Positions 3,036-55,933 of a stretch of 56,914 nt of DNA are shown in pieces. The stretch is from the NCBI GenBank assembly GCA_030647955.1, contig JAUSIQ010000030.1:1-56914 (forward strand), given 5' to 3'. A model generated the notes under the pieces. The model did not search any database. It was not told the DNA's origin and worked only from the letters and a program-made list of their open reading frames with translations. Source of the stretch: a bacterium (GTDB lineage: Bacteria > Patescibacteriota > Minisyncoccia > 2-02-FULL-40-12 > IGHO2-12-FULL-4). The translations under genes and the position numbers were made by a program. Numbering within the stretch: position 1 is the first letter of the stretch; every line of letters starts with the position of its first letter.

Positions 3036-3122
3036 CTAGTTTATAAAGTTATAAAGTTCATCAGGTTATAAAGTTTGCAGAAATACTTTATAAACTTTAA
3101 GACCTTGAAAAACTTGATGAAC
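3036..3122. repeat. AT-rich palindromic intergenic repeat, copy 1 (TTATAAAGT / TTCATCAAGT word family)
   Basis: The left arm is GTTTATAAAGTTATAAAGTTCATCAGGTTATAAAGT. The right arm is ACTTTATAAACTTTAAGACCTTGAAAAACTTGATGAAC. It exactly fills the alr-ftsQ gap. Confidence 0.8.
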
Positions 3123-4256
3123 TCAAAGATATATCCTGGGCAATAGCGGATTAATTCTCGAAACTACTTCGTAGCTGATCGTTCCCAATTTTTGGGCGAT
3201 TTCTTCGGGGGTAATCTTCTCTTCTCCGCTTTGTCCGATTAATACTGCCTCATCCCACACTTTCACTGCCGACACCGCACTAACGTCCGCCACACAGAGA
3301 TTCATCGAAACTCTTCCTAATATTTTACACGATTGCTCATGGATAAGCACTCGGCCGATCGAGGAAAGCCCCCGAAAAAACCCATCGTAATATCCTACCG
3401 GCAAAACTGCGATGGTCGAATCCCTCCGCACTTTTTCCGTAATACCATAACCCACCGGCGTACCCTTTTTTATTTTTTTCACTTGCACCACGCGCGTCTT
3501 CCAGCTCAAAGCCGGTTCTAATCCGAAACCCCCGAAACTTTCTTGAAATTTATCTGATGGCCATAGGCCATAAAAACCAATTCCTACCCGAATAAGATCA
3601 AAGCTGGCTTCTGGTAAAGAGAAAAAGGCCGGGGTAGCGGCGGCGTGAATAATTTTAGGATTAATACCATTCGCCTCTAAAACCGCCAAGGCTCCGTGAA
3701 AATTGGCCAGCTGCGTGCGTGCATAAGCGAGGCGTGGAATATCATCGGCGTTAGCAAAATGTGTAAAGACTCCTTCTAACTTAATGTCCGGAAAGTTTTT
3801 TAGATTTTGAATAAATACCGGTAAATCTTCAGACAATACTCCCTGGCGCGACATTCCACTATCAATTTTTAAATGCCAATCGATATGCCTCTTATGAGGC
3901 GAAGCGGTTTTAAAAAATTCCTCTCCGTAAAGAGTGAGCTTAATTTTATTTTTTACTGCTAGTGCCAGGGCCTCCACGGGAGTGTAGCCTAAAACTAAAA
4001 TTGGTGCCTTAACTTTCGCTTTTCTTAAAGCCACGGCCTCGTTTAAATTGTCCGTTCCGATCCAATCCGCTCCGTATTTTAAAAATAGCTTAGCGGTTTC
4101 GACTAAACCATGCCCATAGGCGTTGGATTTCACCACCGCCATGATAATTTTTCCCTGAGATAATCGCCTAATCACTCGCACATTATTTTCCAGGGTCGCT
4201 TTCGACACCTCTATCCAGGTTTTTAGATTAGCACGATCCATATAGCCAAAGTGCAC
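3123..4256 (-). CDS. alr: Alanine racemase
   Basis: PLP-lysine motif AVVKSNAYGHG and typical length. The true start may be ATG 4241 (MDRANLKTW...). Confidence 0.9.
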   Translation of the reverse strand: MHFGYMDRANLKTWIEVSKATLENNVRVIRRLSQGKIIMAVVKSNAYGHGLVETAKLFLKYGADWIGTDNLNEAVALRKAKVKAPILVLGYTPVEALALAVKNKIKLTLYGEEFFKTASPHKRHIDWHLKIDSGMSRQGVLSEDLPVFIQNLKNFPDIKLEGVFTHFANADDIPRLAYARTQLANFHGALAVLEANGINPKIIHAAATPAFFSLPEASFDLIRVGIGFYGLWPSDKFQESFGGFGLEPALSWKTRVVQVKKIKKGTPVGYGITEKVRRDSTIAVLPVGYYDGFFRGLSSIGRVLIHEQSCKILGRVSMNLCVADVSAVSAVKVWDEAVLIGQSGEEKITPEEIAQKLGTISYEVVSRINPLLPRIYL

Positions 4257-4284
4257 CGAAATTATTTTACTGAGCGAGGGCTAT

Positions 4285-5589
4285 TTACTTTCGGAATTTC
4301 ACTTCTTTAATGCCAAAAGTATAACGCTGTAAGGCTTTAGGAATTTTGACCGAGTCTTTAGTCTGATAGTTCTCCATAATGGCCAATAAAATTCGGCCAA
4401 TCGCAAAAGCCGTGCCGTTAATCGTATGCACCAGTTCTGATTTACCTTCGGCATTCTTAAAGCGAGCCTTCAGGCGACGAGATTGAAAGTCAGTAGAGTT
4501 AGAAGTGGAGTGTGTCTCACGATACTTACCTTCCGCCGGAAACCAAGATTCAAGGTCGTATTGCTTAGCATCGGTCCAAACCATATCTCCAGTACAGATG
4601 AGCATAGCTCGATAAGGAATACCCAGTTCCTGCATCATCGTTTCCTGTAGCGTCAAAAAGAGATCATGTTCAATTTTTGATTTTTCAGGGTGAGCAAAAG
4701 AAAACATCTCTAGTTTATCAAACTGATGCACTCTAAACATGCCCTTTACATCCTTGCCATAAGAACCGGCTTCACGGCGAAAAGCCGTAGAAAAAGCAAT
4801 GTGTCGATGCGGCAAACTTTCCGCAGGCAAGGTCTCCTCCCAATGCATCGCTCCGGTGGTGTGTTCGGCACTGCCAATCAAAAACAAGTCATCGTTGGGC
4901 AAATAGTATCTTTCTTCTTCCTGCCCAGGGTCCAGTTTTCCCATAGCTCGAAAAGCTTCTGGCTTAATCATCACCGGCGGAATCAAGGGAATAAAGGATC
5001 GACTATCCGCCTCCAGCTTATTTTGTTTGATTACCTTGGCCAAGTAATTTTTATTAGCAAGGCGTTCCATTATAAAATTGATAATTGCGAATTCAAGCAG
5101 GGGGGCTTCGTGCTTTAAATAACCGAATCGTGACCCGGAAACTTTTGCACCCTTTTCCATATCAATCCAATCCAGTTTTTCGCCCAACTCAATGTGCGAC
5201 AAAGGAGCAAAAGAAAATTTCGGCTTCTTACCCACTTCCCTTAGAACCTGATTCCCAGTTTCGTCTTTACCTACCGGAACATCCTCAAAAGGAACGTTCG
5301 GCAAACTATACATACCCGCCTGCAATTCCGCTTCTATACCCTTCAACTCTTCTTCTAGCGTTTTTAGTTTTTCCTTAAGTTTCTTTAATTCTTCTAACTC
5401 TTCGGGTGCCTTCGGTCCCCCTCTTGATCTTTTGTTCTGTTCGGCTCGGCCTGCCTCAATTTCTTGAAGTAAGGTTTTTTGTTTCGTATCCAATGCCAAA
5501 ATCTTATCGACATCGGCCTTGGCTTGTCGATTTTTTACCGCTTCCTTAACTTTCTCTGGATTTTGTCTAACGAATTTAATATCGAGCAT
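4285..5589 (-). CDS. serS: Seryl-tRNA synthetase
   Basis: MLDIKFVRQNPEKV start, N-terminal coiled-coil arm and a class II core (FRRE..GS, GTAFAIGR). Confidence 0.92.
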   Translation of the reverse strand: MLDIKFVRQNPEKVKEAVKNRQAKADVDKILALDTKQKTLLQEIEAGRAEQNKRSRGGPKAPEELEELKKLKEKLKTLEEELKGIEAELQAGMYSLPNVPFEDVPVGKDETGNQVLREVGKKPKFSFAPLSHIELGEKLDWIDMEKGAKVSGSRFGYLKHEAPLLEFAIINFIMERLANKNYLAKVIKQNKLEADSRSFIPLIPPVMIKPEAFRAMGKLDPGQEEERYYLPNDDLFLIGSAEHTTGAMHWEETLPAESLPHRHIAFSTAFRREAGSYGKDVKGMFRVHQFDKLEMFSFAHPEKSKIEHDLFLTLQETMMQELGIPYRAMLICTGDMVWTDAKQYDLESWFPAEGKYRETHSTSNSTDFQSRRLKARFKNAEGKSELVHTINGTAFAIGRILLAIMENYQTKDSVKIPKALQRYTFGIKEVKFRK

Positions 5590-12651: not shown

Positions 12652-12726
12652 TATGGTTGTAAGATAACAAAAGAATCATGAACAATCAAACCACCACTTA
12701 ATTTATTTTTTACGCGATCACTTAAA

Positions 12727-13245
12727 TTATAAATTATAGTACTGTTTAAATTCTTTTTCTTTAGAACCAATGGAAAATGCTTGAACTAAATCTACATAGG
12801 ACTCAATATCCAGGTACCGCACTAGAAAAGAAATCTCGTTTTCGCAATGGAATGGACAAACAAACACACTTTTTTGAATCATTTTAAAATCCAGAGCTTT
12901 CAGCTTATTGCGCAAAACCTGTCTGGCATTTTTAAATTGTTCTGGAATATCGAAAATTATAATTCTCCACTGGTTATCCCACTTTCTGCTTCTAATTTTA
13001 AGTTGTCTAAACTTTAGATCTAAAAACCATCGCTGGCCCTTACTGGTAAGAGCAAATCCTTTGGGATGATCTCGAATGATTTTTCGGTATTTCAGATTAT
13101 AGAAATTTTGACGAATCCTTTTAGGATCCATTCCGCCACTCCTAATTATTTTATCTTCCCAGGATTCCCTGATGACAAAGCCGGCGGCAATCACCGGAAA
13201 CTCCTCCAAAATTTCCAATAAAGTTGAAATAAATTTACTACGCAT
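12727..13245 (-). CDS. PaaX-family-like regulator (winged-helix region plus Cas2/VapD-like ferredoxin-fold C-domain)
   Basis: WDNQWRIIIFDIPEQFKNARQVLRNKLKALDFKMIQKSVFVCP matches the W..W..v.ydIPe..r..R..lr..L...GF..l..svwv.P pattern of PaaX C-domains. Assigned from motif memory only. Confidence 0.5.
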   Translation of the reverse strand: MRSKFISTLLEILEEFPVIAAGFVIRESWEDKIIRSGGMDPKRIRQNFYNLKYRKIIRDHPKGFALTSKGQRWFLDLKFRQLKIRSRKWDNQWRIIIFDIPEQFKNARQVLRNKLKALDFKMIQKSVFVCPFHCENEISFLVRYLDIESYVDLVQAFSIGSKEKEFKQYYNL

Positions 13246-13248
13246 ATG

Positions 13249-13288
13249 ATACTTTATAATTTACGTGGTCGCTTAAATTATAAAGTAT
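13249..13288. promoter_or_regulatory. Perfect 15-bp inverted repeat (ATACTTTATAATTTA-N10-TAAATTATAAAGTAT); candidate operator/promoter of the PaaX-like gene
   Basis: Arms at 13249-13263 and 13274-13288. It begins 4 nt upstream of the ATG at 13245, and each arm contains TATAAT. Confidence 0.55.
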
Positions 13289-13310
13289 GTGGTGGAATGT
13301 GCAATATTGC

Positions 13311-13338
13311 GACAACAAAAAACTCCCAAGATGGGAGT
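13311..13338 (-). terminator. Intrinsic terminator ending the minus-strand RNA-B candidate
   Basis: On the minus strand: CUCCCA-ucu-UGGGAG followed by UUUUUUGUUGU. It is preceded by a second 9-bp hairpin (13351-13373). Confidence 0.7.
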
Positions 13339-13770
13339 CTAGAAAGAAATGAACCCCGCTGAGCGCGGGGTTCGGAGAACGAAGAAAGGAACATTACAGA
13401 GCGGCGCGGGACTGGCCTCCGAACTACTGGTGGAACTCCTGTTACGGCCGCTTTGGCCGTCCGTTCGGTTTCCACGGACCAGTCCCGCGAAATCAATTCA
13501 CGTTTTCACATGCGCTGATTTCGAAAGACTAAGGGGTCGGCCCGACAGTTAGCAGTCCTGTCAAAACCGACCCACACACAGACGAATTAACGGAGGAACG
13601 GTTGGGAGTGCCGCATCACTCCCTGATTGCTGGTGGGCACCCAGGTATGCGGCCCTGAGCCCCCAACTACCCATTTGGAACGTCGGGATATCGCAGTTCC
13701 AGTAGTTTCCGCTTTAGCTTCACTACCTTCCCTGCGCATTTTGTTCTACTGCACCCGCGGCTTTCTAAAC
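13311..13770 (-). ncRNA. Unassigned large structured RNA candidate 'RNA-B' (about 450 nt)
   Basis: GC-rich relative to its flanks, with only junk ORFs. More than 8 helices of 5-13 bp, including two crossing long-range helices. It has a canonical terminator at its 3' end. No RNase P, tmRNA or SRP signature sequences are seen. Confidence 0.45.
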
Positions 13771-13813
13771 ATAGAGAAATATCAGAATTCCAGAAATCAA
13801 TTAATGTTATTAG

Positions 13814-13822
13814 TGTTAGAAT
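13814..13822 (+). promoter_or_regulatory. Extended -10 box TGTTAGAAT for a plus-strand small RNA
   Basis: Same TGnTAnnAT style as the gene promoters in this window. A TTAATG -35-like hexamer lies upstream. Confidence 0.4.
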
Positions 13823-13828
13823 CTATAC

Positions 13829-14027
13829 TTACCGTCTAAAAAGCTATGGGCGAAGTAGTACTTCGTATTTTTTAATTCACCTATTCAGCAGCCGCAAAAA
13901 ATTGAAGGTACAGTTTTTTGCTTTTGCGGCTATTGAATAGGCCGGGGTGGGCCTAGCTGTCTCGTTGGTCTTTTCTTAGGAGACCCACCCCGGTGGAGCG
14001 GTTTAACGCCGCCGCTCCGATTTTTTT
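13829..14027 (+). ncRNA. Candidate about 200-nt plus-strand sRNA (three consecutive long hairpins)
   Basis: Promoter at 13814-13822. There is an 18-bp hairpin at 13880-13941 and a 10-bp GC hairpin at 13942-13993. The terminator is GGAGCGG..CCGCUCC plus U7 (13995-14027). Confidence 0.4.
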
Positions 14028-14329
14028 CCGCAGCGCAGGAGGTTTTTCTCCTACGCTGCACTCAACGCTCTGGCATACTCACATCCCTACAGAGAAGTGG
14101 TCGCCGCATGACGGTGCAACGAACCACCAGTGCACTTCATCTCACGGATGACGCCGACGCCGGTCGAGGAGTATTCAAAGGTGCAGGTGCGTGTGAAGCA
14201 CGGTCATGCATACCTCCTTTCACGTTGTGGGGGGGGCTGGCGCTATCGTAGTGGCCTGCCCGCCGGTTAAAAGTACAGTTTTTGGGAGGCCTCAGGGGCC
14301 CTTGATGCGGCGCCCTGTTCCAACCTCGC
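13838..14329 (-). ncRNA. Candidate minus-strand transcript 'RNA-A', antisense to the plus-strand sRNA
   Basis: Driven by TTGACA-N18(TGa)-TAAGAT at 14336-14365. GC-rich and hairpin-dense. The 3' end is uncertain: a weak hairpin plus U5 near 13838, or read-through into RNA-B. Confidence 0.3.
13995..14027 (+). terminator. Intrinsic terminator (GGAGCGG-N10-CCGCTCC-GA-T7)
   Basis: 7-bp GC-rich stem followed by a 7-nt T-run on the plus strand only. Confidence 0.65.
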
Positions 14330-14335
14330 TTTATC

Positions 14336-14365
14336 ATCTTATCACATTTGACCCTATAATGTCAA
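14336..14365 (-). promoter_or_regulatory. Sigma70-like promoter TTGACA-N18-TAAGAT with TGn extension
   Basis: The -35 hexamer is at 14365..14360 and the -10 at 14341..14336. There is no CDS downstream for 1.1 kb. A plus-strand TATAAT (14355-14360) overlaps it divergently. Confidence 0.5.
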
Positions 14366-14394
14366 GCACAGCGATGAAAATGGCCAAAAAACCC

Positions 14395-14464
14395 TTATTT
14401 TATCGAGCGAGGAGCAAAATGGCAAATTCTGATTTTACATTTTGTCCGAGTGAAGCTAAAAGAT
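14395..14464 (+). repeat. SD-ATG hairpin module, copy A
   Basis: TTATTTTAtcgAGCGAGGAGCAAAATGG-N13-TTACATTTTGTCCGA-gt-GAAGCTAAAAGAT. It recurs in inverted orientation at 43702-43803. Confidence 0.75.
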
Positions 14465-14482
14465 CTGAACACTTTGCTGCTT

Positions 14483-14536
14483 GGGAGCAAAACGGTTCCG
14501 CCATGGCGGAACCGTTGCCTCGCAGGAACTGCGAGG
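14483..14536 (-). terminator. Tandem hairpins downstream of proS
   Basis: On the minus strand: CCUCGCAG-uuc-CUGCGAGG, then GGUUCCG-ccaugg-CGGAACC followed by GUUUUG. Confidence 0.55.
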
Positions 14537-14541
14537 AGTGT

Positions 14542-15774
14542 TCATTTTTCAAGGGTTTTTCCGATATCCTTAACGGGGACCAACTCCATGCCAGGCTTCC
14601 CACGCCGCTTAACTTCTACGCTCTTTTCTTTGAGGGTTTTAGAGCTCACGATCACCCGAATAGGGAGGCCAATGAGATCAGCATCAGCGAACTTTTCGCC
14701 TGCTCCTTTATCGTCACGGTCATCATAGAGTACTTCCACGCCGTGATCCCAAAGTCTTTGATAAATTTTAGCTGCTTCTTTAGCCGCTCCATCTAACGCA
14801 ATGAGATAAACTTTGAAGGGCGCCACACTTTCCGGCCAAAGCAAACCGCTTTTGTCATGAAAAACTTCCGCCAACGTTCCCATCACTCGGGAGGGACCAA
14901 TTCCGTATGATCCCATCACAATGGGCTTACTCTCCCCCTTCTCATCTACAAAATTCAAATTAAAGGCTTTAGAGAAACGCGTTCCGAGTCTAAATATATT
15001 ACCCACCTCGATGGATTTGCCGACATTAATCGTTCCGTCGCACTTTGGACACTTGCCGCCTTGGGGCAAGTTGGTAATCTCTTTATTCTGACTGTAGCGG
15101 CATTTTTCACAGTAGAAAATAGTATCCTCCCCTGCTTCAGACAACACTTGAAATTCGTGCGTATATTCTTTAGTGAAAGCCCCACCGGAAGCTTCGGTAA
15201 CATAGGCATCTAATCCCAGACGCTGAAATACTTTTAAATAGGAATTGAGAACGTCCTGATAAAAACGTTGCAGATCTGCTTCGTCACGGTGAAAACTATA
15301 CAAATCTTTCATTAAAAATTCTCGTCCACGTAAAATTCCTGACTTCGCTCGGGCTTCATTTCTAAACTTGGACTGAATTTGATAAGCACTGAAAGGTAAA
15401 TCCTTATACGACTGCACGTAACGCTTGGCGATTTCGGTAATAACCTCTTCGTGGGTCCAGCCTAAACCAAACTCGTGTCCGGTCTCATCTTTGAGTTTAT
15501 ACATCACATCGACGTCCCAGCGCTCCGAAGCTTCCCAATAACGCTTATTCACCAAAGTGGGCATCAACAGTTCGGTCGCTCCCAAGGCATTCATCTCTTC
15601 TCGAATGATCGCGTTGATCTTATTGAGAGTACGCCAGCCTAAAGGCAGATAGGTATAAATTCCAGAATTATTTTTGTAAACAAAACCAGCTTGCTCAAGA
15701 AGCTGGGCGTTTACGCTAGTCTCGTCTTTCGGAGTCTCCTTTTCAGTTTTCGTGAAAAGCCTGGAAAGCTTCAT
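14542..15774 (-). CDS. proS: Prolyl-tRNA synthetase, bacterial-type core lacking the INS editing domain (small CxxC..CxxC insert instead)
   Basis: Class II motifs (REFLMKDLYSFH, HEFQVL..GED, GSYGIGPSR) and a C-terminal anticodon-binding domain. It is only 410 aa, with CEKCRYSQNK..CPKCDG where INS normally sits. Confidence 0.88.
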   Translation of the reverse strand: MKLSRLFTKTEKETPKDETSVNAQLLEQAGFVYKNNSGIYTYLPLGWRTLNKINAIIREEMNALGATELLMPTLVNKRYWEASERWDVDVMYKLKDETGHEFGLGWTHEEVITEIAKRYVQSYKDLPFSAYQIQSKFRNEARAKSGILRGREFLMKDLYSFHRDEADLQRFYQDVLNSYLKVFQRLGLDAYVTEASGGAFTKEYTHEFQVLSEAGEDTIFYCEKCRYSQNKEITNLPQGGKCPKCDGTINVGKSIEVGNIFRLGTRFSKAFNLNFVDEKGESKPIVMGSYGIGPSRVMGTLAEVFHDKSGLLWPESVAPFKVYLIALDGAAKEAAKIYQRLWDHGVEVLYDDRDDKGAGEKFADADLIGLPIRVIVSSKTLKEKSVEVKRRGKPGMELVPVKDIGKTLEK

Positions 15775-29615: not shown

Positions 29616-32012
29616 TTAGGCGGTCACTCCCGGATAGCCTCGATTGATCTTGGGAAGACGCACTGCCTTCGCTCCTTTCATTATCGGAGATTTCAAAGCA
29701 ACATTCAAGAGCTCATCCACTGTTTTTACGAACACAATTTTCATGGTCTTTTTGACCTTCTCAGGGATATCTTCAAGATCCTTGCGGTTCTCTTCCGGCA
29801 CCACAACCGTTTTTAAGCCAGCGCGATGCGCGGCAAGAATTTTTTCGCGTAATCCCCCAATCGGCAAGACTCTTCCGCGCAAAGTAATTTCTCCCGTCAT
29901 AGCCACGTCTTTTCGAACAGCTCGTCTGGTTAACAAGGAGATGATGGCAGTAATCATGGTTACGCCAGCCGAAGGTCCGTCTTTAGGAATAGCACCGGAT
30001 GGTAAGTGGACATGAATATCCTCTTGATAAAAATCTCCGGTAATCCCCCATTTTTCGGCATTAGAGCGCACGTAACTCAAAGCGGCCTGCACCGATTCAC
30101 GCATTACCTCGCCTAATCTTCCTGTGAGGATCAATTTCCCTTTTCCAGGCATTTTAGTAGCCTCCACAGACATCACCTCTCCGCCCACGGGAGTCCAAGC
30201 TAAACCAGTCGCTACCCCAATCTCATCTTGCTTTTCAATTCCTTGATGAGAATAGCGCTCCGGACCTAAATATTGGTGAAGAATTTTCGGAGTGATCACT
30301 ACTTTCTCCGCTTTGCCACCCTCCACTACTTTTCTCGTTACCTTACGGAATATTCCAGAAAGTTTTCGTTCCAATTCGCGCACTCCCGCTTCACTGGTGT
30401 GCTTATGAATGACATCCGCTACCATATTATCGGCAATACCAAGCTGGCTCGACTTTAAACCGTGCTGTTCAAATAGTTTCGGCAGTAAAAATTTTTTAGC
30501 AATCGATAATTTCTCATCTTCGGTATAACCGGAGAATTCAATAATTTCCAAGCGGTCGCGCAACGCCGGCGGAATGGTGTCTAAGCGATTAGCCGTGGTG
30601 ATAAAAATCACATCAGAAAGATCAAACGGAACTTCGAGATAATTATCCGAAAAAGAAAAATTTTGCTCCGGATCTAAGGCTTCCAGTAGAGCAGAGGATG
30701 GGTCGCCCCGAAAGTCTTGCCCGATTTTGTCAATTTCATCTAGCATAAAGACCGGGTCTTTGGCACCCGCGGTATGAATACCCTGGATAATTCTTCCGGG
30801 TAAAGCGCCGACATAAGTGCGACGATGTCCGCGAATTTCGGCTTCGTCTTTTAATCCTCCCAAAGAAACCCGCACAAATTTTCTTCCTAACGAATTGGCG
30901 ATCGAGCGGCCAATAGAAGTTTTACCGGTGCCGGGCGGCCCAAAGAAACATAAGATCGGGCCACGTACTTTACCCACCTGTTTCTGCACAGCCAAATACT
31001 CCAAAATTCTTTCTTTGGTTTTGTGCAGGCCATAATGATCTTTGTTGAGAATTTTTTCGGACTTTTTGAGATCGATCTCTCCGGTGGTCTTCAAAGACCA
31101 GGGCAATTCCACCAACCAATCCAAATAGGTTCGAAGATAAGAAACCTCCGGACTAAACATCGGCATTTTTTCCAAACGATCCAATTCCTTCAAAGCTTTC
31201 TTCTCTACCTCTTCCGGCATCTTTGACTTCTTGAGCTTTTCGCGAAGCTGATAATATTCTCCTTTTTCTCCATCCACGCCCAATTCTTTCTCGATGCTCT
31301 TGAGCTGTTCACGCAAAAAGATTTCTTTTTGCATTTTGCCTAATTGACGCTTCGTTTCTTTAACTACCTTCTTCTCGGTTTCCATAATCTCTCCCTCGCG
31401 CGCCAAGTAGAAGTTAACCTTCTTCAATGCTTCGTTAATATTGAAAGTTTCTAGAATATTTTGCTGATCATTTAACTCCAAGTTAAGATTCACAGCAATT
31501 AAGTCTACGAGCTGTTCCGGATCCTTGAGTTGATTGAGGGTGAAGAGCAAAGAGGGAAAAACCGAAGGCATAATTTTAACTTCGGTAACTCTTTTGAACT
31601 GCTCCACGACGGTGCGAATTAAAGCTTCCGACTCTACGGTATTGTTGTAGTGAAGATCGACTGGTTCAATGCGCGCCTTAAAGAAAGGCTCTTCTTGGAC
31701 AAATTCTTCTAAACGCACCCGGCCTAGACCTTCCACATCCACCTTAAAGGAACCGTCCGGTAAACGGTTAGTGGAGATAACCTTGCCAACCGTTCCAATG
31801 CGGAAGAGGTCATCTGGGGCGGTGTGGTCATGCATGTTCTTTTGAGCCACAAACACCAAAAAACCGTCTTTGGCTAAGGCGTATTCGAGACTAGCGATAG
31901 ATTTAGGGCGCTGGACTACAAGCGGAATGATGATCCGAGGGAAAAGGACCACGTTTTTAAGGGCTACCACCGGTAATTCATTCCCAACGCTGACATTGCC
32001 GATTTTGAACAT
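29616..32012 (-). CDS. lon: ATP-dependent Lon protease
   Basis: LON N-domain, Walker [10 protein letters not shown], Walker B MLDEIDK, and the protease Ser motif DGPSAG with a downstream Lys. Confidence 0.95.
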
Positions 32013-42703: not shown

Positions 42704-42716
42704 ACTCGGTTTTTTT
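42695..42716 (+). terminator. Intrinsic terminator (CCGAG-ctaaa-CTCGG-T7)
   Basis: The stop codon lies in the loop, and a 7-nt T-run follows. Confidence 0.7.
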
Positions 42717-42731
42717 ATCCACAGGCGAATC

Positions 42732-42759
42732 TTGATTTATAAATCAGCCTTGTTAATAT
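42732..42759 (+). promoter_or_regulatory. Sigma70-like promoter TTGATT-N16-TAATAT
   Basis: It sits between two terminators with no ORF downstream, so it would drive the sRNA candidate. Confidence 0.5.
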
Positions 42760-42765
42760 ATTCAA

Positions 42766-42975
42766 GCGGGTTTGGAAGAAAGTAAAGACGATTCCCTTGG
42801 CCGGCACAATGGGAAGAGCAAGGGGTGATGAGGCCGGTGGCCTCTAAGTACACCTGATCCGGTGACTCGCGGCCCAAGCTATGCGAAGCCCGAACACCGT
42901 TGCTAAACCAAACTCGTCCAGTTCTTATTTATCCTTTCTCCTTTCCTCGCCCTGGATTTCCAGGGCTTTTTTTTA
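42766..42975 (+). ncRNA. Unassigned about 210-nt sRNA candidate with its own promoter and terminator
   Basis: Closing helix GGGUUUGG/CCAAACUC, internal hairpins (CCCUUG/CAAGGG; GAGGCC/GGCCUC), a CU-rich tail, and the terminator GCCCUGG-auuu-CCAGGGC-U9. Confidence 0.45.
42949..42975 (+). terminator. Intrinsic terminator of the sRNA candidate
   Basis: 7-bp GC stem plus a 9-nt T-run. It works only on the plus strand. Confidence 0.7.
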
Positions 42976-43029
42976 TTTTTCATCCATTATATCTCAACTC
43001 GCCTCATCGCTTTCTTCGGAAAGAAGAAT

Positions 43030-43376
43030 CTCCGCTCCCCCACCCCTTTCTTGATCCTCCTTCGGTTTCAAATCCTCTGTCCATTTTGTTGTAAAGCCAG
43101 ATGAAAAGGACGAGCCTGGTCGAGCCCTCCCCTCATCCTTTGTCATCTGGCCTTTACTTCCAAAATGGCCAGGGATTATATCACCCTCAGTCGGATTAGC
43201 GGCGAAAGGGATGGGGTCGCTTTCACTAGCGACGATAGGAGATGAGGGTCACCTAAAATTTCTGGAATCAAATATTGATTCGAATGCAGCTGATGAGCGC
43301 AGTCGAGGATCAGTGGAGAGGAGTAGGTGGTGGAGCGATAAGGTTTTTTGCTGGAGAAAGGGGTGGGGCCGCGGAG
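43030..43376 (+). ncRNA. Unassigned about 350-nt structured RNA candidate closed by a 20-bp helix (strand tentative)
   Basis: P1 is 43030-43051 / 43355-43376 and P2 is 43052-43059 / 43305-43312 (8 bp perfect). There is a 15-bp hairpin at 43096-43151, further hairpins at 43182-43249 and 43265-43281, and C(UUCG)G tetraloops on the plus strand. Confidence 0.4.
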
Positions 43377-43393
43377 GTCTAACTGAACGTGAC

Positions 43394-43422
43394 TTGCATA
43401 AATACAGATAATTTGTTATTAT
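43394..43422 (+). promoter_or_regulatory. rpsT promoter TTGCAT-N17(TGt)-TATTAT, 10 nt from the ATG
   Basis: Good -35, spacer and extended -10. No SD precedes ATG 43433. Confidence 0.55.
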
Positions 43423-43432
43423 CATAGCCGAT

Positions 43433-43702: not shown

Positions 43703-43803
43703 TCTTTTAGCTTCGCTGTGCCACCGCTAAAGCTTTAGCGACACGCGATCGGACAAAATGTAATATAAGAATACCCCATTTTGCTCCTCGCTATGTAAAA
43801 TAA
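43702..43803 (-). repeat. SD-ATG hairpin module, copy B (with a 32-nt net palindromic insertion)
   Basis: The reverse complement reads TTATTTTAcatAGCGAGGAGCAAAATGG-N13-TTACATTTTGTCCGA-[34 nt]-GAAGCTAAAAGAT. It starts at the rpsT stop codon. Confidence 0.75.
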
Positions 43804-48565: not shown

Positions 48566-50503
48566 TTATAACTTTCTAAGGAGGCTATAATATTTTTCGA
48601 GTTTGTTTCTTAAATACTGCTCATCTTGATGCAAAGACCTGTGACTGGCAATCTTGTTCAAAATCTCCAGTTCTTTTTTAATATCTTTTTCCAAAATTTT
48701 AAGCTCCAGTTTTGTCTTAGAGTCCAGTTTTTTCAGTTTCTTAGAAGCTTGGTATTCGGAGGCGATAAATTTAATTTTGCGGGTTTCGTCAACGATAAAC
48801 GGTATCGCTCTTTTTGCAACCAGAATGGCCAGAGAAGCAATTGCCGCTCCCACTACTATCAAGAACCAACCCTTGCTTAAAAAGTTAACTAGACTGTCAA
48901 AGCCACGCGGAATTATATTGGAAACCGACTCGCCCAATTGAGTGAGAGCGGATTTTTCCACAACTTTCAATACCACATCGGAAAAAGCATCCGAAACTAC
49001 CCCGCGCTCATCCTTGCCATAAGCACGAATGATATAAGTGCCGACTCCAAGATCGTCAATCTTTGCTTCAAAATCGCCATTTTCATCTACCGGCGCCTCA
49101 ATGGTTTTAATCAAATCTAACTCATCTCTTTTTAGAGATTCTGATATCTGTCCCAAAACATTACCATTTCGGAGCTTAAACACATCTACTACTGTTGCCA
49201 CTACTTTTACCACTGTCCCCTCTTTTATTACTACCTCTTTTTCTATCTTTCCTTTAACTACTACTTCTTTAACTACTACTTCTTTTTCTTCTCTGATGAT
49301 AACTACCTCATCTGCCTCTATGCCAGGCAAGATAATCTCTTTTATAATTGGTTTCGGAATAGGAACAGGGCTAACGATAACTTCTATGTTTGAACTAGCG
49401 GAGTTACCGGCTTTGTCAAAAGCTTTAATCTCAACTAAACGCTCACCATACTTCTGCAGTGGCAAGGTATAGGCCTTTCCGGCCTCACTCGCCTCAATCT
49501 TAAACCAGTCACCACTTCCTATTTTCATCTCATAACGGTCTATACCGGAAATGGCATCCGAACTTTCAAACAGCAATTGGGGGCGAGGGTTGGTCAAATC
49601 ATCAGTATCTAAGCGTGAAATCGTAAAACTGCTCGGTGATTGAGTATCAATATTGAATTTGAAAGAAGTTGTCGGCCCAAGCCCTGCCGCTGTTCTCAAT
49701 CTGGCATTCAAGTACCACTCGCCTTCATCCAAGTCATCAAGCAATTTTTCCGAGATCGGCGGAGAGTAATTAATTATCGGCGAAGTGTTGGCTCTTCTGG
49801 AAAGCACCAGGATTACTTCGATCACTCCCGACGGCACGTTCCACTTAAATAGCGGATTTTTATTAGAGTACCATTTTGATTCTTCCGGATGCGTGGGAGA
49901 GTTTATTTCCATACTGACCAGTCCCGATCCGGTAACTGGCGCTTTCTGTTGTTCGCCTGGCGGAGGAACGGGCTGGATTACTCCTGGCGAAACTACGTAA
50001 GAAGCTTTACCCAGACTGGCCAAAATATTTGTGCCGTAACCGTCATTGGCCAAAATTCCTCCCGATACCAAATTAATTTCCGTAGATCCCCGAACGGTGG
50101 TAGCGGTTTTGGCCTTGAAAGTAATGGTCAGCACCAATCCATTGGCCCCGCTATAGCCCGGACTGGGAACTCCTCCGGCGAATTCTATAGAACCTTCGGC
50201 GTTAGAAAATTTCGGCTCCGCCGCCCAGATGGTAAAGATGGAACCGGATTTAGAAATCGAAGAGACACTTAGTTTGGCCGGATCAAAAACAATACTTCCT
50301 TCAGCGGCATTAATGGCGGTTCCGCCGGTATTAACTCTAACGACGATCGAAAAAGACTGCTCGGCCGATACTGTTCCGCTAGAAGGAGAAAAATACAAAG
50401 ATCCGTTTTGGGCTTCGGCAACATTATGAAAAGAAAAAACAAAACCCAGCACTACGAAAAGTGCTAGGAATACCCTTTCAAAATCCCGCCTAAAAAAATA
50501 CAT
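48566..50503 (-). CDS. Cohesin-module surface protein with C-terminal TM anchor and coiled-coil tail
   Basis: Signal peptide. The cohesin-like module reads SFSIVVRVNTGGTAINAAEGSIVFDPAKLSV..IEFAGGVPSPGYSG..ITFKAK. There are Ig-like segments and a Val/Lys/Glu low-complexity stretch. A TM helix (WFLIVVGAAIASLAILVA) follows, and the protein has a Lys-rich tail. Confidence 0.7.
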   Translation of the reverse strand: MYFFRRDFERVFLALFVVLGFVFSFHNVAEAQNGSLYFSPSSGTVSAEQSFSIVVRVNTGGTAINAAEGSIVFDPAKLSVSSISKSGSIFTIWAAEPKFSNAEGSIEFAGGVPSPGYSGANGLVLTITFKAKTATTVRGSTEINLVSGGILANDGYGTNILASLGKASYVVSPGVIQPVPPPGEQQKAPVTGSGLVSMEINSPTHPEESKWYSNKNPLFKWNVPSGVIEVILVLSRRANTSPIINYSPPISEKLLDDLDEGEWYLNARLRTAAGLGPTTSFKFNIDTQSPSSFTISRLDTDDLTNPRPQLLFESSDAISGIDRYEMKIGSGDWFKIEASEAGKAYTLPLQKYGERLVEIKAFDKAGNSASSNIEVIVSPVPIPKPIIKEIILPGIEADEVVIIREEKEVVVKEVVVKGKIEKEVVIKEGTVVKVVATVVDVFKLRNGNVLGQISESLKRDELDLIKTIEAPVDENGDFEAKIDDLGVGTYIIRAYGKDERGVVSDAFSDVVLKVVEKSALTQLGESVSNIIPRGFDSLVNFLSKGWFLIVVGAAIASLAILVAKRAIPFIVDETRKIKFIASEYQASKKLKKLDSKTKLELKILEKDIKKELEILNKIASHRSLHQDEQYLRNKLEKYYSLLRKL

Positions 50504-54682: not shown

Positions 54683-55933
54683 TTATTGAATAGTATCCGT
54701 CCACACAAAAGATTCTACGGGAGTCGTACGAATAACTACTACATACACCGTCGCACCGACAGCGCTTGAGCCGGTATATACAGCTTCTACTATACCACTT
54801 GAATCCGTTGAGATTGTGCGGTCAGAAAGAGTATCTTTATCCATCCAAGTAGCTTGGTCTGCGTCACCAGTGGCATAGACATGCACAGATATCTTAATCG
54901 CTTCACTGGCCACTGCGGCATCGTTTTTGTCTTTCAGCAGAAAATGCACTACTTTGGAAAGGCTGTTGGTAACAGAAGCATCAGCAGTTGTGATTAACTC
55001 GGCATTAGATGCCACCGACAAAATACTTCCTGTTGACTGGTCATAATCCAACACCACCGTGTCATCTTGCTGGATAAGTTCAGCTCTTCTCACCACCCAG
55101 CTAGTTGTTGTATTGCCACTGCGATAGGTTAACGCCGCATTTGCCCCGCCATTGACTTGCGCCGTTAATCCGGCAACCGTATCTCCCGCGCTGGGAGCAG
55201 GCGTAATATCTACAGCTTCATCGAAAGTAATCGCGATATCTTGATATGGGCCGCCGGTCTCGTCTGAAAATGCCCGGTCCGAATCAGCCATTGAGGCCGT
55301 GGAAATATGCGGAGCAAATAGATCAGTGGCGGTAACAAATTCTATCCAACCCGGTTCAGTAGTAACATTGGTACTGCCGTTGGTCAGATCCGTGCTGCCG
55401 GTATTGCCATAATCTATTGTGCCGCTTAGAGTTGCGGTAGCGGTATTCTGGGCTCGATAGCCGATCTCAACCACGATTCTATCGCTTGCAGAAGCACTCA
55501 CAGTAGAAAGTGTTTTTGTGCCCTCTGTCGCTCCGGCGGCAGTTGTCGGCCAGTTTGTAGCGCCGATATCATCTGCCAAAAGCGTTCCCCGAGGAGTATT
55601 TAAATCAGTCCCAGTTGAAACATAGATATGAACATGAAATTTGCCGTTCAAATTAGTCGATGCCAGTGCGCCAATCACCCACTCAGCTGTATCGCTGGTG
55701 CTAAAAGAAACAGCATTGTCTATAGGATTAGAAATCCATCTCCCCAAGAAAACGTCCCAATCAGTGGTGGCAGTGGCTTCAGAATCAGAAACAGTAGCGG
55801 CGGTATCACCCGTAGACCGGCTAAGCAACCGATCATTCAGTGTGCTGGAAGAGTCATCCCAAGTTCCCTGTAGAGTTGTGCCGCTGTAACCGGAAGCGGC
55901 GCTATTTGTAATATAAAGTCGTGTTGTTGCCAT
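54683..55933 (-). CDS. Thr/Ser/Ala/Asp-rich, Cys-free hypothetical protein (possible lectin/jelly-roll plus Ig-like domains), no signal peptide
   Basis: 416-aa ORF with TGTTATAAT 7 nt upstream of the ATG. The composition is typical of extracellular or structural proteins. The fold assignment is a guess. Confidence 0.5.
   Translation of the reverse strand: MATTRLYITNSAASGYSGTTLQGTWDDSSSTLNDRLLSRSTGDTAATVSDSEATATTDWDVFLGRWISNPIDNAVSFSTSDTAEWVIGALASTNLNGKFHVHIYVSTGTDLNTPRGTLLADDIGATNWPTTAAGATEGTKTLSTVSASASDRIVVEIGYRAQNTATATLSGTIDYGNTGSTDLTNGSTNVTTEPGWIEFVTATDLFAPHISTASMADSDRAFSDETGGPYQDIAITFDEAVDITPAPSAGDTVAGLTAQVNGGANAALTYRSGNTTTSWVVRRAELIQQDDTVVLDYDQSTGSILSVASNAELITTADASVTNSLSKVVHFLLKDKNDAAVASEAIKISVHVYATGDADQATWMDKDTLSDRTISTDSSGIVEAVYTGSSAVGATVYVVVIRTTPVESFVWTDTIQ

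Follow-up and report, generated by a model that had tools for sequence, protein, structure and literature searches.

Large structured RNAs without a known function are rare, and RNase P, group II introns, OLE and ROOL/GOLLD proved to be ribozymes or large assemblies. Noncoding RNAs are also found as tandem paralogous sRNA clusters, for example LhrC1-5 of Listeria and Qrr of Vibrio. The genomes of CPR bacteria (Patescibacteria) are tiny and contain little noncoding DNA. TIGR arrays and CRISPR-like guide arrays occur in CPR bacteria (PMC12045711).

Here we analyze a locus in the window, i.e. the entire 56,914-nucleotide stretch of contig JAUSIQ010000030.1, where the initial annotation had proposed a plus-strand hairpin RNA inside a minus-strand transcript. 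The region is probably the central part of a stand-alone gene that specifies a modular, structured noncoding RNA of ~1.0 kb and lies on the minus strand, co-directional with proS and mreB. The gene is similar to OLE, ROOL, GOLLD and raiA in its length (0.5-1.2 kb), its many covariation-supported helices, its own, here predicted, promoter and terminator, its restriction to a single lineage, its high GC content in an AT-rich genome and a genomic context without functional clue. It gives no cmscan match to any of these families, at gathering score or at E<=10, and is far narrower in distribution than they are, and it further differs by a turnover of domains, with gains, losses, duplications and moves among close relatives, and by a Shine-Dalgarno (SD)-like element with a mini-ORF. 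The locus shares with the LhrC1-5 and Qrr clusters repeated homologous units, here termed M-type (a long hairpin, then a GC helix), and, in some relatives, units of this type with promoters and U-run ends of their own; in the window, however, the units are fused in one predicted transcript that encloses long variable inserts. TIGR and CRISPR-like arrays are comparable as noncoding, array-like CPR loci with a rho-independent terminator at the end, and a neighboring gene here encodes a domain with a Cas2-like fold (PaaX_M), whereas our locus is without repeat-spacer units and has loops that are conserved across species, not variable as spacers are.

Genomic context and distribution

The ORF-free gap at 13246-14541 (~1.3 kb) has proS on one side and a PaaX-like gene, followed by mreB, on the other. 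It contains no credible ORF, its ORFs have no Pfam matches, and its GC content is 0.55-0.60 versus 0.30-0.45 in the flanks. The six nearest genes, which were scanned, encode ProRS, a PaaX_M/Cas2-like protein, MreB, MreC, RseP and RRF, and the housekeeping cluster has the order rrf-rseP-proS, the RNA, and mreBCD-pbp2. As mreB adjoins proS directly in about 70 of 80 other Paceibacteria (loci from GTDB, found through ProRS), the stretch represents a clade-specific insertion. Seven metagenomic relatives, with ProRS 64-83% identical, carry a noncoding insert of 0.8-2 kb at the same site. Three of them (L081, L083 and L084) have blocks in common with the window, all in the proS direction, and the homology of the remaining four (L086, L090, L095 and L096) is weaker. 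A conserved core, consisting of the elements HP0, HP1, P_A and M, is common to most of the seven, and the order HP0-HP1-P_A-M is the same in the four closest genomes. The core is missing from close relatives such as L085 and L087-L089, and the RNA is hence either dispensable or very fast evolving. Domains have been inserted, duplicated and moved among genomes whose core is 75-98% identical. In the source metagenome the locus is single-copy, with flat depth over the core and a single contig, and the known carriers are a few contigs of groundwater and freshwater metagenomes. The proS-mreB site is an insertion hot spot with varying cargo, including a PaaX-like gene, a 23S_rRNA_IVP gene, small ORFs and an AIRS_C gene.

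Predicted promoter, terminators and transcript

The minus-strand promoter at 14336-14365 that the initial annotation had pointed out is present, with TTGACA, an 18-nt spacer ending in TGn, and TAAGAT (10/12 matches with TG in the promoter scan), and corresponds to a near-consensus sigma-70-type promoter with an extended -10. A near-consensus TTGACA-N18(TGn)-TAnnnT recurs on the proS strand of all seven relatives, where it is found at the 5' border of the noncoding stretch. The predicted start is near 14329, ~7 nt downstream of the promoter, and the predicted primary transcript covers 13314-14329 on the minus strand (~1.0 kb). It closes with two tandem intrinsic terminators at 13314-13373 (minus strand; a stem at 13373-13351, and a stem at 13340-13320 followed by U6), and equivalent hairpin and U-run elements are found at the far end of the relatives' loci. 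A scan of the window detected no internal minus-strand promoter or terminator-like site between 14329 and 13373. Promoter and intrinsic terminator thus flank an ORF-free stretch on one strand, a pattern conserved in the relatives, and, judged from these signals, the locus would give rise to a single ~1-kb transcript running from the promoter at 14365-14336 to the terminators at 13373-13314. The noncoding, promoter-driven minus-strand transcript put forward initially is in this way supported, as a prediction with a recurring promoter.

Structural domains

The GC-rich hairpin HP0 (13942-13993, minus strand), originally described as a 10-bp GC stem, has arms at 13942-13954/13981-13993 forming 13 bp including one U·G, and is placed directly 5' of HP1. 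Its position, not its sequence, is conserved in L083, L084, L090 and L095, and the G·U pairs that it has in L084, L090 and the window would turn into C·A mismatches on the plus strand. HP1 (13880-13941, minus strand), originally an 18-bp stem, is composed of 20-nt arms (13880-13899/13922-13941; 90% complementary) that form 19 bp with a conserved U·G and a 1x1 mismatch, and is capped by an AU-rich loop of 22-33 nt. In the three genomes with a UACCUUC loop, this loop is complementary to the SD-like GGAGGUA. The P_A domain (13749-13855, minus strand) consists of a ~21-bp helix, 13855-13833 with 13771-13749, closing an AU-rich hairpin with the invariant GUAUAGAUUC.

Downstream, the 213-nt expansion segment (13531-13743, minus strand) is missing from L081 and from a near-identical metagenome relative, the contig of which joins 13530 to 13744. 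It includes sub-module X, two hairpins at ~13690-13570 that in L084 are located elsewhere (3100-3200). Module M (13405-13531, minus strand) comprises H1/H1ext, 13531-13516 with 13495-13480, and H2, 13489-13479 with 13415-13405; the segment GGGACU is contested, pairing either upstream in H1ext or downstream in H2. L083 has two copies of M-type units (3565-3920 and 4170-4410), and in L090, L095 and L096 such units are situated behind a second internal promoter, with a U run after H2.

The helices are well maintained in the relatives, with 99.1% of cells paired in HP1, 95.3% in P_A, 93.3% in H1ext and 89.6% in H2. Pairs changed on both sides number 8 in HP1 (6 sequences), 5 in H1ext (8 instances; alignment stitched from arms) and 6 in H2 (7 instances; stitched arms, partner strand picked by eye), in a small sample of 6-8 sequences that are all metagenome assemblies from one narrow clade. 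P_A has zero compensatory pairs, its changes being only one-sided and compatible with wobble pairing, and 24 G·U cells. In shuffle controls, which related sequences can beat without any structure, the percentage of paired cells observed for HP1 was reached in 0/500 and its double-change count in 1/500. Thus, the hairpins, whose conservation the initial annotation had proposed as a check, are present, are exceptional as structured-RNA elements and go far beyond chance, since they are kept in relatives with compensatory changes.

Strand of the RNA

Across four alignments, 94.3% of cells are paired when read on the minus strand versus 84.0% on the plus strand, and 53 G·U cells on the minus strand stand against 10 A·C cells. 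Congruently, the RNAalifold consensus is -54.4 for the minus and -40.4 kcal/mol for the plus strand, with P_A alone at -29.1 versus -16.4, and 13318-13880 folds to a minimum free energy of -214 kcal/mol (z -6.5) as minus strand and of -182 (z -2.9) as plus strand. The G·U asymmetry and the consensus folding energies therefore place the RNA on the minus strand, and the hairpins are parts of this RNA rather than a separate 200-nt plus-strand RNA. The strand asymmetry of the G·U pairs furthermore indicates selection on RNA, not DNA.

The 5' domain

The 5' domain (13994-14329, minus strand) is hypervariable and unalignable among the relatives except for one SD-like element. Even X2, a near-identical relative with 98.5% identity across 13814-13947, is divergent past 13947, and L081 is without both this domain and the expansion segment, its minimal version of the RNA measuring ~510 nt. 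The domain folds about equally on both strands (-191.8 plus versus -185.2 minus). It holds the reverse complement of a plus-strand U7 terminator (13994-14027), and one of its hairpins (13994-14019) has slightly better pairing as a plus-strand sequence, in which form it looks like a canonical U7 terminator. An 11-mer, GTACAGTTTTT, reported as a repeated word, does occur twice, at 14273-14283 in this domain and from 13908 in the HP1 loop, extending to 15/17 matching bases; a repeat of this kind is within chance, as ~17% of random 1.3-kb sequences of the same composition contain one.

The conserved element, GAAAGGAGGUA (14211-14221, minus strand), is a perfect SD-like sequence, read directly from the sequences. 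It is kept in L090 (GAAAGGAGGUA), L095 (GAAAGGAGGGUA), L083 (AAAAGGAGGGUA) and L084 (GUAGGAGGCC). SD sequences are hardly used elsewhere in the genome, its own genes being almost all leaderless or SD-less. The pattern GGAGG-N4-9-ATG is found 13 times in the window versus 9.3 expected, which is not significant for a single sequence, yet the element is retained in four relatives. The mini-ORF MTVLHTHLHL* (14175-14207, minus strand; 10 codons, ATG at 14207-14205 with GGAGG at 14217-14213 ahead) reads as initially annotated, and the start codon following GAAAGGAGGUA is conserved too, unlike the peptide: in its place the relatives have 1-13 unrelated codons (ML*, MPG*, M*, GUG-UGA, MHIIRHSFDGENI*).

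Searches for known families and further copies

The Rfam search advised by the initial annotation returned 0 matches at gathering score in the window and eight relatives, and only miRNA-type noise at E<=10; the families covered include OLE, ROOL, GOLLD, HEARO, raiA, 6S, tmRNA, RNase P, SRP, T-box and group I/II introns. ARAGORN found no tRNA or tmRNA. The covariance model of the M hairpin, R1, matched at these loci only, with no further copy in the window or 93 loci. Searches with blastn and nhmmer against the 80 GTDB loci found through ProRS recovered zero nucleotide similarity. The pattern TTTTTAGACG-N2-5-GTATAGATTC had three matches in metagenome contigs, each due to chance on inspection, and three patterns run on viral contigs as well as blastn against phage and plasmid collections produced no match. 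In the literature, we found no description of this RNA, the single lead being the TIGR-Tas systems, which we rejected.

Several individual identities were considered and dismissed. A tmRNA was discarded, as the GAUUCGAC-like motif lacks conservation and acceptor and T-arm are missing. The RNase P P4-like AGAAAGCCGCGGG belongs to a segment that pairs locally inside P_A, and the hammerhead-like CUGAUGAG is found in L084 only, within the HP1 stem. 6S RNA was likewise considered on reading the sequence and dropped. A template repeat of a diversity-generating retroelement (DGR) was discarded as there is no reverse transcriptase, and a TIGR or CRISPR array as there are no tandem units and no Nop-domain or Cas gene among the six nearest neighbors scanned.

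Alternative explanations

The initial annotation envisaged a ~200-nt plus-strand RNA (13829 to the U7 at 14027) antisense to the minus-strand transcript, with a regulatory or toxin-antitoxin-like role, which we consider very improbable. The motifs behind it do exist: the extended -10 box TGTTAGAAT (13814-13822, plus strand) matches TGnTAnnnT, three terminator-like hairpins with T runs occur on the plus strand in the region, among them GGAGCGG/CCGCTCC followed by T7 and ending at 14027, and the 5' domain folds marginally better on this strand. The box is nonetheless judged fortuitous; it has no -35 element, is absent from the promoter-scan list and is specific to the window, the consensus being lost in all three alignable relatives (L081, L083 and L084), with TGTAAGAAT, TGTCAGAAT and TTGTCGAAT as the variants read in relatives, and the P_A loop region is partly the reverse complement of TGTTAGAAT. 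A start at the box would moreover meet a terminator-like hairpin with T6 at 13850-13873, between the box and HP1, ending the transcript before HP1. The U7 terminator is part of the non-conserved 5' domain, the sequence of which diverges even in the 98%-identical relative, and the G·U pairs of the conserved helices are A·C mismatches on the plus strand. Hence only the minus-strand half of the suggested sense/antisense pair stands. The locus is reminiscent of type I toxin-antitoxin systems in that a small ORF with an SD ahead is embedded in a highly structured RNA, and in possible overlapping transcription, but the ORF, with 10 codons, is not hydrophobic and is replaced by 1-13 unrelated codons in the relatives, and the putative antisense promoter, 350 nt from the ORF, is not conserved. 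A mobile element, also suggested originally, finds no support either, the locus being single-copy in the source metagenome and giving no match in phage, plasmid or viral collections.

A decaying inserted element or dead gene in the proS-mreB hot spot, its hairpins being DNA palindromes of REP or MITE type, is likewise improbable. The variable cargo of the hot spot, the patchy presence of the RNA among relatives and the hypervariable 5' domain would fit such a remnant, but the helices are maintained by compensatory changes, near-consensus promoter and terminators are kept in seven lineages, the core is single-copy without terminal repeats or multi-copy signal, and the strand-specific G·U asymmetry indicates selection at the RNA level. 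Even less probable is a cis-acting leader or attenuator that controls the PaaX-like gene or mreBCD, in which H1ext and H2 would be antiterminator and terminator, and the mini-ORF a leader peptide with three His in 10 codons. The conserved, mutually exclusive helices, the U run after H2 in L090 and L095 and the terminators ahead of the next gene agree with this arrangement. The gene downstream nevertheless varies by relative (PaaX-like, 23S_rRNA_IVP or mreB), a -10 box and a palindromic operator belonging to the next gene stand right at that gene's start, the RNA is closed by two strong tandem terminators ~800 nt from the ORF, the peptide varies among the relatives, and there is no biosynthetic operon, for His or otherwise, behind it. 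More serious, although still doubtful, is the possibility that the 5' domain, HP0-HP1, P_A, X and M are independent sRNAs, cleaved from a precursor at the ~20-bp duplexes or separately transcribed. The doubled M-type units of L083, their second promoter and terminal U run in L090, L095 and L096, the different placement of X in the window and L084, and the loss of 5' domain and expansion in L081 speak for such an array, whereas the window shows no internal minus-strand promoter or terminator from 14329 to 13373 and the HP0-HP1-P_A-M order is held in the four closest genomes.

Proposed working and significance

The best reading remains a new, narrowly distributed, modular large noncoding RNA of a small group of groundwater Paceibacteria (CPR). 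Its modules would follow one another as the hypervariable 5' domain with the SD-like GAAAGGAGGUA and tiny ORF, HP0, HP1, P_A, the variable expansion and M, and in the more distant relatives the same unit types appear to be divided between two promoters. Such a molecule may act in trans as a structured RNA, with the GC-rich helices as scaffold and the conserved AU-rich loops and SD-like element as contact surfaces for protein, the 30S subunit or other RNA. The H1ext/H2 alternative may reflect a step in co-transcriptional folding or serve as a conformational switch, and the ~20-bp duplexes could be RNase III processing sites that free smaller RNAs. It is unlikely, but conceivable, that the RNA represents a new class of large modular CPR noncoding RNAs engaging the translation machinery, a thought based on the conserved, perfect 8-11-nt element complementary to the anti-SD with its start codon or start-stop pair. 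In that case the RNA would load or sequester ribosomes or 30S subunits, or else a ribosome bound at the 5' end could set the fold of HP0, HP1, P_A and M, including the H1ext/H2 switch.

For annotation, the hairpins belong to the minus strand, and the locus is not to be labelled an antisense pair or a toxin-antitoxin system. The modular evolution of this RNA is unusually fast, and its SD-like/start-stop element is unusual for an SD-poor genome. Considering how tiny CPR genomes are, a gene-sized structured RNA that is kept in a tight housekeeping cluster probably does something for these cells.

Setting of the noncoding stretch

The region 13246-14541 (1.3 kb) holds no credible ORF, and the ORFs tested within it gave no Pfam matches. 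It is bordered by two minus-strand genes, proS (prolyl-tRNA synthetase, 14542-15774) and a PaaX_M/Cas2-like gene (12727-13245), with mreB, mreC and others beyond the latter and RseP and RRF upstream of the gap; indeed, the minus strand carries nearly all genes of the window. The GC content of the gap is 0.55-0.60, compared to 0.30-0.45 in the flanks. The sequence originates from a groundwater metagenome, and its ProRS places it in Paceibacteria/Parcubacteria.

None of 80 GTDB species representatives (ProRS 51-61% identical to that of the window) displayed nucleotide similarity to the gap, and about 70 of the 80 have a gene of ~350 codons in the mreB position, 0-60 nt after proS. Considering this near-adjacency of proS and mreB, the noncoding stretch is an insertion confined to a small clade. 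Closer relatives were obtained by a protein search and subsequent contig look-ups, and all loci were set with proS on the plus strand, equivalent to the minus strand of the window. Downstream of proS we found a 0.8-kb gap in L081 (ProRS identity 83%), 1.9 kb in L083 (81%), a 138-codon ORF and then ~1.3 kb of noncoding DNA in L084 (76%), 0.9 kb in L086 (75%), at least 0.7 kb before the contig ends in L096/L097 (71%), 1.3 kb in L090 (65%), and an inserted AAA+ gene followed by the RNA block in L095 (64%). Blastn and direct reading identified blocks common to these relatives and the minus strand of the window.

In the window's clade (L081-L096), the proS-mreB junction is a hot spot for insertions that differ in content, the two genes being adjacent (0-60 nt) in most other Paceibacteria (L001-L080). 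Besides the ncRNA, the cargo includes a PaaX-like gene, a 23S_rRNA_IVP gene (L084, 3413-3763), the AAA+ gene of L095, a Cys-rich ORF of 52 codons that has a promoter of its own (L083, 2602-2760) and an AIRS_C gene (L087-L089). The PaaX_M/Cas2-like gene is itself bordered on both sides by a 40-nt palindrome, ATACTTTATAATTTA-N10-TAAATTATAAAGTAT, one copy at 13249-13288, overlapping the -10 box and start of the gene, and one at 12691-12733, just upstream of mreB. They could serve the repressor-like protein as operators, or delimit a small cassette inserted here.

Strand and predicted extent of the transcript

The initial annotation proposed a plus-strand hairpin RNA of about 200 nt within a minus-strand transcript, and direct reading of 13200-15000 recovered every item on which this was based: the plus-strand extended -10 box TGTTAGAAT (13814-13822), a long hairpin with 20-nt arms of 90% complementarity (13880-13899/13922-13941, described as an 18-bp stem), a GC stem (13942-13954/13981-13993 in the inverted-repeat listing), the terminator-like GGAGCGG/CCGCTCC with T7 ending at 14027, and, from the promoter scan, a minus-strand TTGACA-18-TAAGAT promoter with TG (14365-14336). 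The word GTACAGTTTTT is likewise repeated at 13908 and 14273, and on the minus strand GGAGG (14217-14213) precedes, by five bases, the ATG (14207-14205) heading MTVLHTHLHL*. As single-sequence statistics the last two are weak, as a repeated 11-mer is expected in ~17% of random 1.3-kb sequences of the same composition, and the window contains GGAGG-N4-9-ATG 13 times versus 9.3 expected.

The feature is real, but belongs to the opposite strand. Folding of 13318-13880 yielded -214 kcal/mol (z -6.5) for the minus strand versus -182 (z -2.9) for the plus strand, and across four alignments 94.3% of cells were paired on the minus strand versus 84.0% on the plus strand, with 53 G·U cells against 10 A·C cells. 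RNAalifold, run independently for each orientation, gave -54.4 versus -40.4 kcal/mol for the HP1 hairpin together with the long-helix domain P_A, and -29.1 versus -16.4 for P_A alone; the 5' domain alone is strand-ambiguous (minus -185, plus -192). The proposed plus-strand promoter lacks a -35 element, is absent from the promoter scan listing and is the reverse complement of a conserved loop, GUAUAGAUUCUAACA; the plus-sense strings of relatives at this position (TGTAAGAAT, TGTCAGAAT and TTGTCGAAT) have lost the TGnTAnnnT consensus. RNA initiated there would moreover meet GCGAAGTAGTACTTCGT and T6 (13850-13873) ahead of HP1, and the plus-strand U7 terminator sits in the non-conserved 5' domain. 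No comparative support for antisense transcription was found at the locus.

The minus-strand promoter, in contrast, recurs as TTGACA, an 18-nt spacer ending in TGn, and TAnnnT, at the 5' boundary of the noncoding block and on the proS strand: at 14365 in the window, 6402 in L081 (11/12 matches), 2788 in L083, 2139 in L084, 2704 in L086, 7256 and 7550 in L090, 9274 in L095 and 1973 in L096. A hairpin and U run on the same strand closes each block. Between promoter and next gene, the only minus-strand terminator-like sites of the window are 13373-13351 and 13340-13320 with U6, the two terminators (13373-13314) forming the last element of the RNA; a single transcript of ~1.0 kb, from ~14329 to ~13314, is therefore predicted.

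Architecture of the RNA

The 5' domain (14329-13994, minus strand) is not alignable between relatives, and the similarity of a freshwater relative that is 98.5% identical over 13814-13947 ends at 13947. Conservation there is limited to GAAAGGAGGUA (14221-14211) and the start codon after it, with counterparts in L090 (GAAAGGAGGUA, AUG-CUG-UAG), L095 (GAAAGGAGGGUA, GUG-UGA), L083 (AAAAGGAGGGUA, a 13-codon UUG ORF) and L084 (GUAGGAGGCC, AUG-CCA-GGU-UAA). Hence, an SD-like element and a start codon are conserved, and the mini-ORF peptide is not. This stands out because an SD sequence is missing from the majority of the 34 gene starts inspected in the window. In many, a TATAAT-like box precedes the start codon by 7-12 nt, as in proS and in the genes spanning 29616-32012, 48566-50503 and 54683-55933, suggesting that leaderless mRNAs are widespread among the window's genes. 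As a speculative lead only, the HP1 loop UACCUUC (UACUUUC in L083) could pair with the SD-like GGAGGUA (GAGGGUA in L083) in three sequences.

The GC stem corresponds to HP0 (13993-13942), whose G·U pairs read correctly on the minus strand only; a GC-rich hairpin of unrelated sequence lies directly 5' of HP1 in the window, L083, L084, L090 and L095. HP1 (13941-13880), the former 18-bp stem, has 99.1% of cells paired in six sequences, both-side changes in 8 of 19 pairs, and an invariant U·G pair adjoining a 1x1 mismatch. Slid controls reached 33-53% pairing, and among 500 shuffles none attained the observed pairing and one the double-change count. P_A (13855-13749) consists of a ~21-bp helix around an AU-rich hairpin carrying the invariant GUAUAGAUUC; 95.3% of cells are paired, all changes being one-sided and wobble-compatible, with no compensatory changes among the four sequences.

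Next follows an expansion segment of 213 nt (13743-13531), missing from L081 and from a metagenome contig joining 13530 to 13744, and replaced by different inserts in L083 and L084. A two-hairpin sub-module of the segment is also present in L084, with compensatory changes, there downstream of the 3' module M. In M (13531-13405), the H1/H1ext hairpin is 93.3% paired with five double-change pairs (n=8 instances), and helix H2 (13489-13479 with 13415-13405) 89.6% with six (n=7), among them CGCGGG/CCCGCG to CGUGAG/CUCACG; the H2 partners were picked by eye and the arms stitched together for alignment. GGGACU is used by both H2 and the outer part of H1ext, which are therefore mutually exclusive. 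Single-sequence folds return H2 in the window and L083a, and H1ext in L081, L083b, L084, L086 and L090. M is duplicated in L083, and in L090, L095 and L096 a second promoter precedes M-related units.

The element AAUUGAUUUC is present in the P_A loop (13793-13808) and the 3' arm of H1 (13489-13504), so that the P_A loop could compete for the 5' arm of H1. L084 has an additional H1-like hairpin immediately before P_A. Such resemblance suggests a duplication origin of the P_A and M units. The perfect 12-nt inverted repeat TTTAGCTTCACT/AGTGAAGCTAAA, with arms 724 nt apart in the 3' region of proS (14449-14460) and in the expansion segment (13713-13724), may be due to chance.

Other hairpins of the window

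A ~45-nt hairpin motif, UCGGACAAAAUGUAA...CCAUUUUGCUCCUCGCU, is found at 14406-14455 (minus) and 43745-43792 (plus), 88.6% identical over 44 nt, in each case just downstream of a gene (proS and rpsT, respectively) and on its strand. In the source metagenome a 50-nt piece with this hairpin reaches a depth of 239-595x against 11.7x for its surroundings, and many other organisms there therefore carry it. Related hairpins, CGCAAAAUG...AUUUUGCGGGG, occur in L083, L086, L090, L095 and L096. Separately, a second ORF-free, GC-rich gap of ~730 nt (42704-43432), between a 111-codon Cys-rich ORF and rpsT, has no Rfam match and may represent another uncharacterised structured RNA.

Identity and distribution

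No Rfam family reached its gathering score anywhere in the window, eight relatives likewise gave no Rfam match, and at E<=10 the gap yielded miRNA-type noise alone, on its big hairpin. ARAGORN found no tRNA or tmRNA, and no similarity to phage records, plasmid records or viral contigs was found. The most conserved motif, scanned against JGI metagenome contigs, gave three matches, all by chance, and a covariance model built on the 3' hairpin detected no further copies in 94 sources. The family is narrow.

A toxin-antitoxin locus, to which the initial annotation had likened the region, or a leader peptide is contradicted by the mini-ORF being tiny and non-conserved. A cis-acting leader is at odds with the downstream gene differing among loci (PaaX-like, 23S_rRNA_IVP or mreB) and, in the window, having its own -10 box and palindromic operator. 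The initial annotation had also likened it to mobile-element RNA; MITE or REP elements are dismissed by copy number and strand-specific constraint, and TIGR or CRISPR arrays (PMC12045711) by the lack of tandem units and of a nearby effector gene. We read the locus as neither an antisense pair nor a toxin-antitoxin locus nor a mobile element.

Aggregated, the helices form a conserved, strand-specific set, the flanking promoter and terminators are conserved, and domains have been gained, lost and duplicated in a modular fashion. The locus most likely encodes a novel large ncRNA of modular build and narrow distribution. It would represent a stand-alone structured RNA acting in trans, with the single-stranded AU-rich conserved loops of HP1 and P_A and the SD-like element as likely contact surfaces, H1ext/H2 may constitute a folding step or switch, and RNase III processing at the ~20-bp duplexes is possible.
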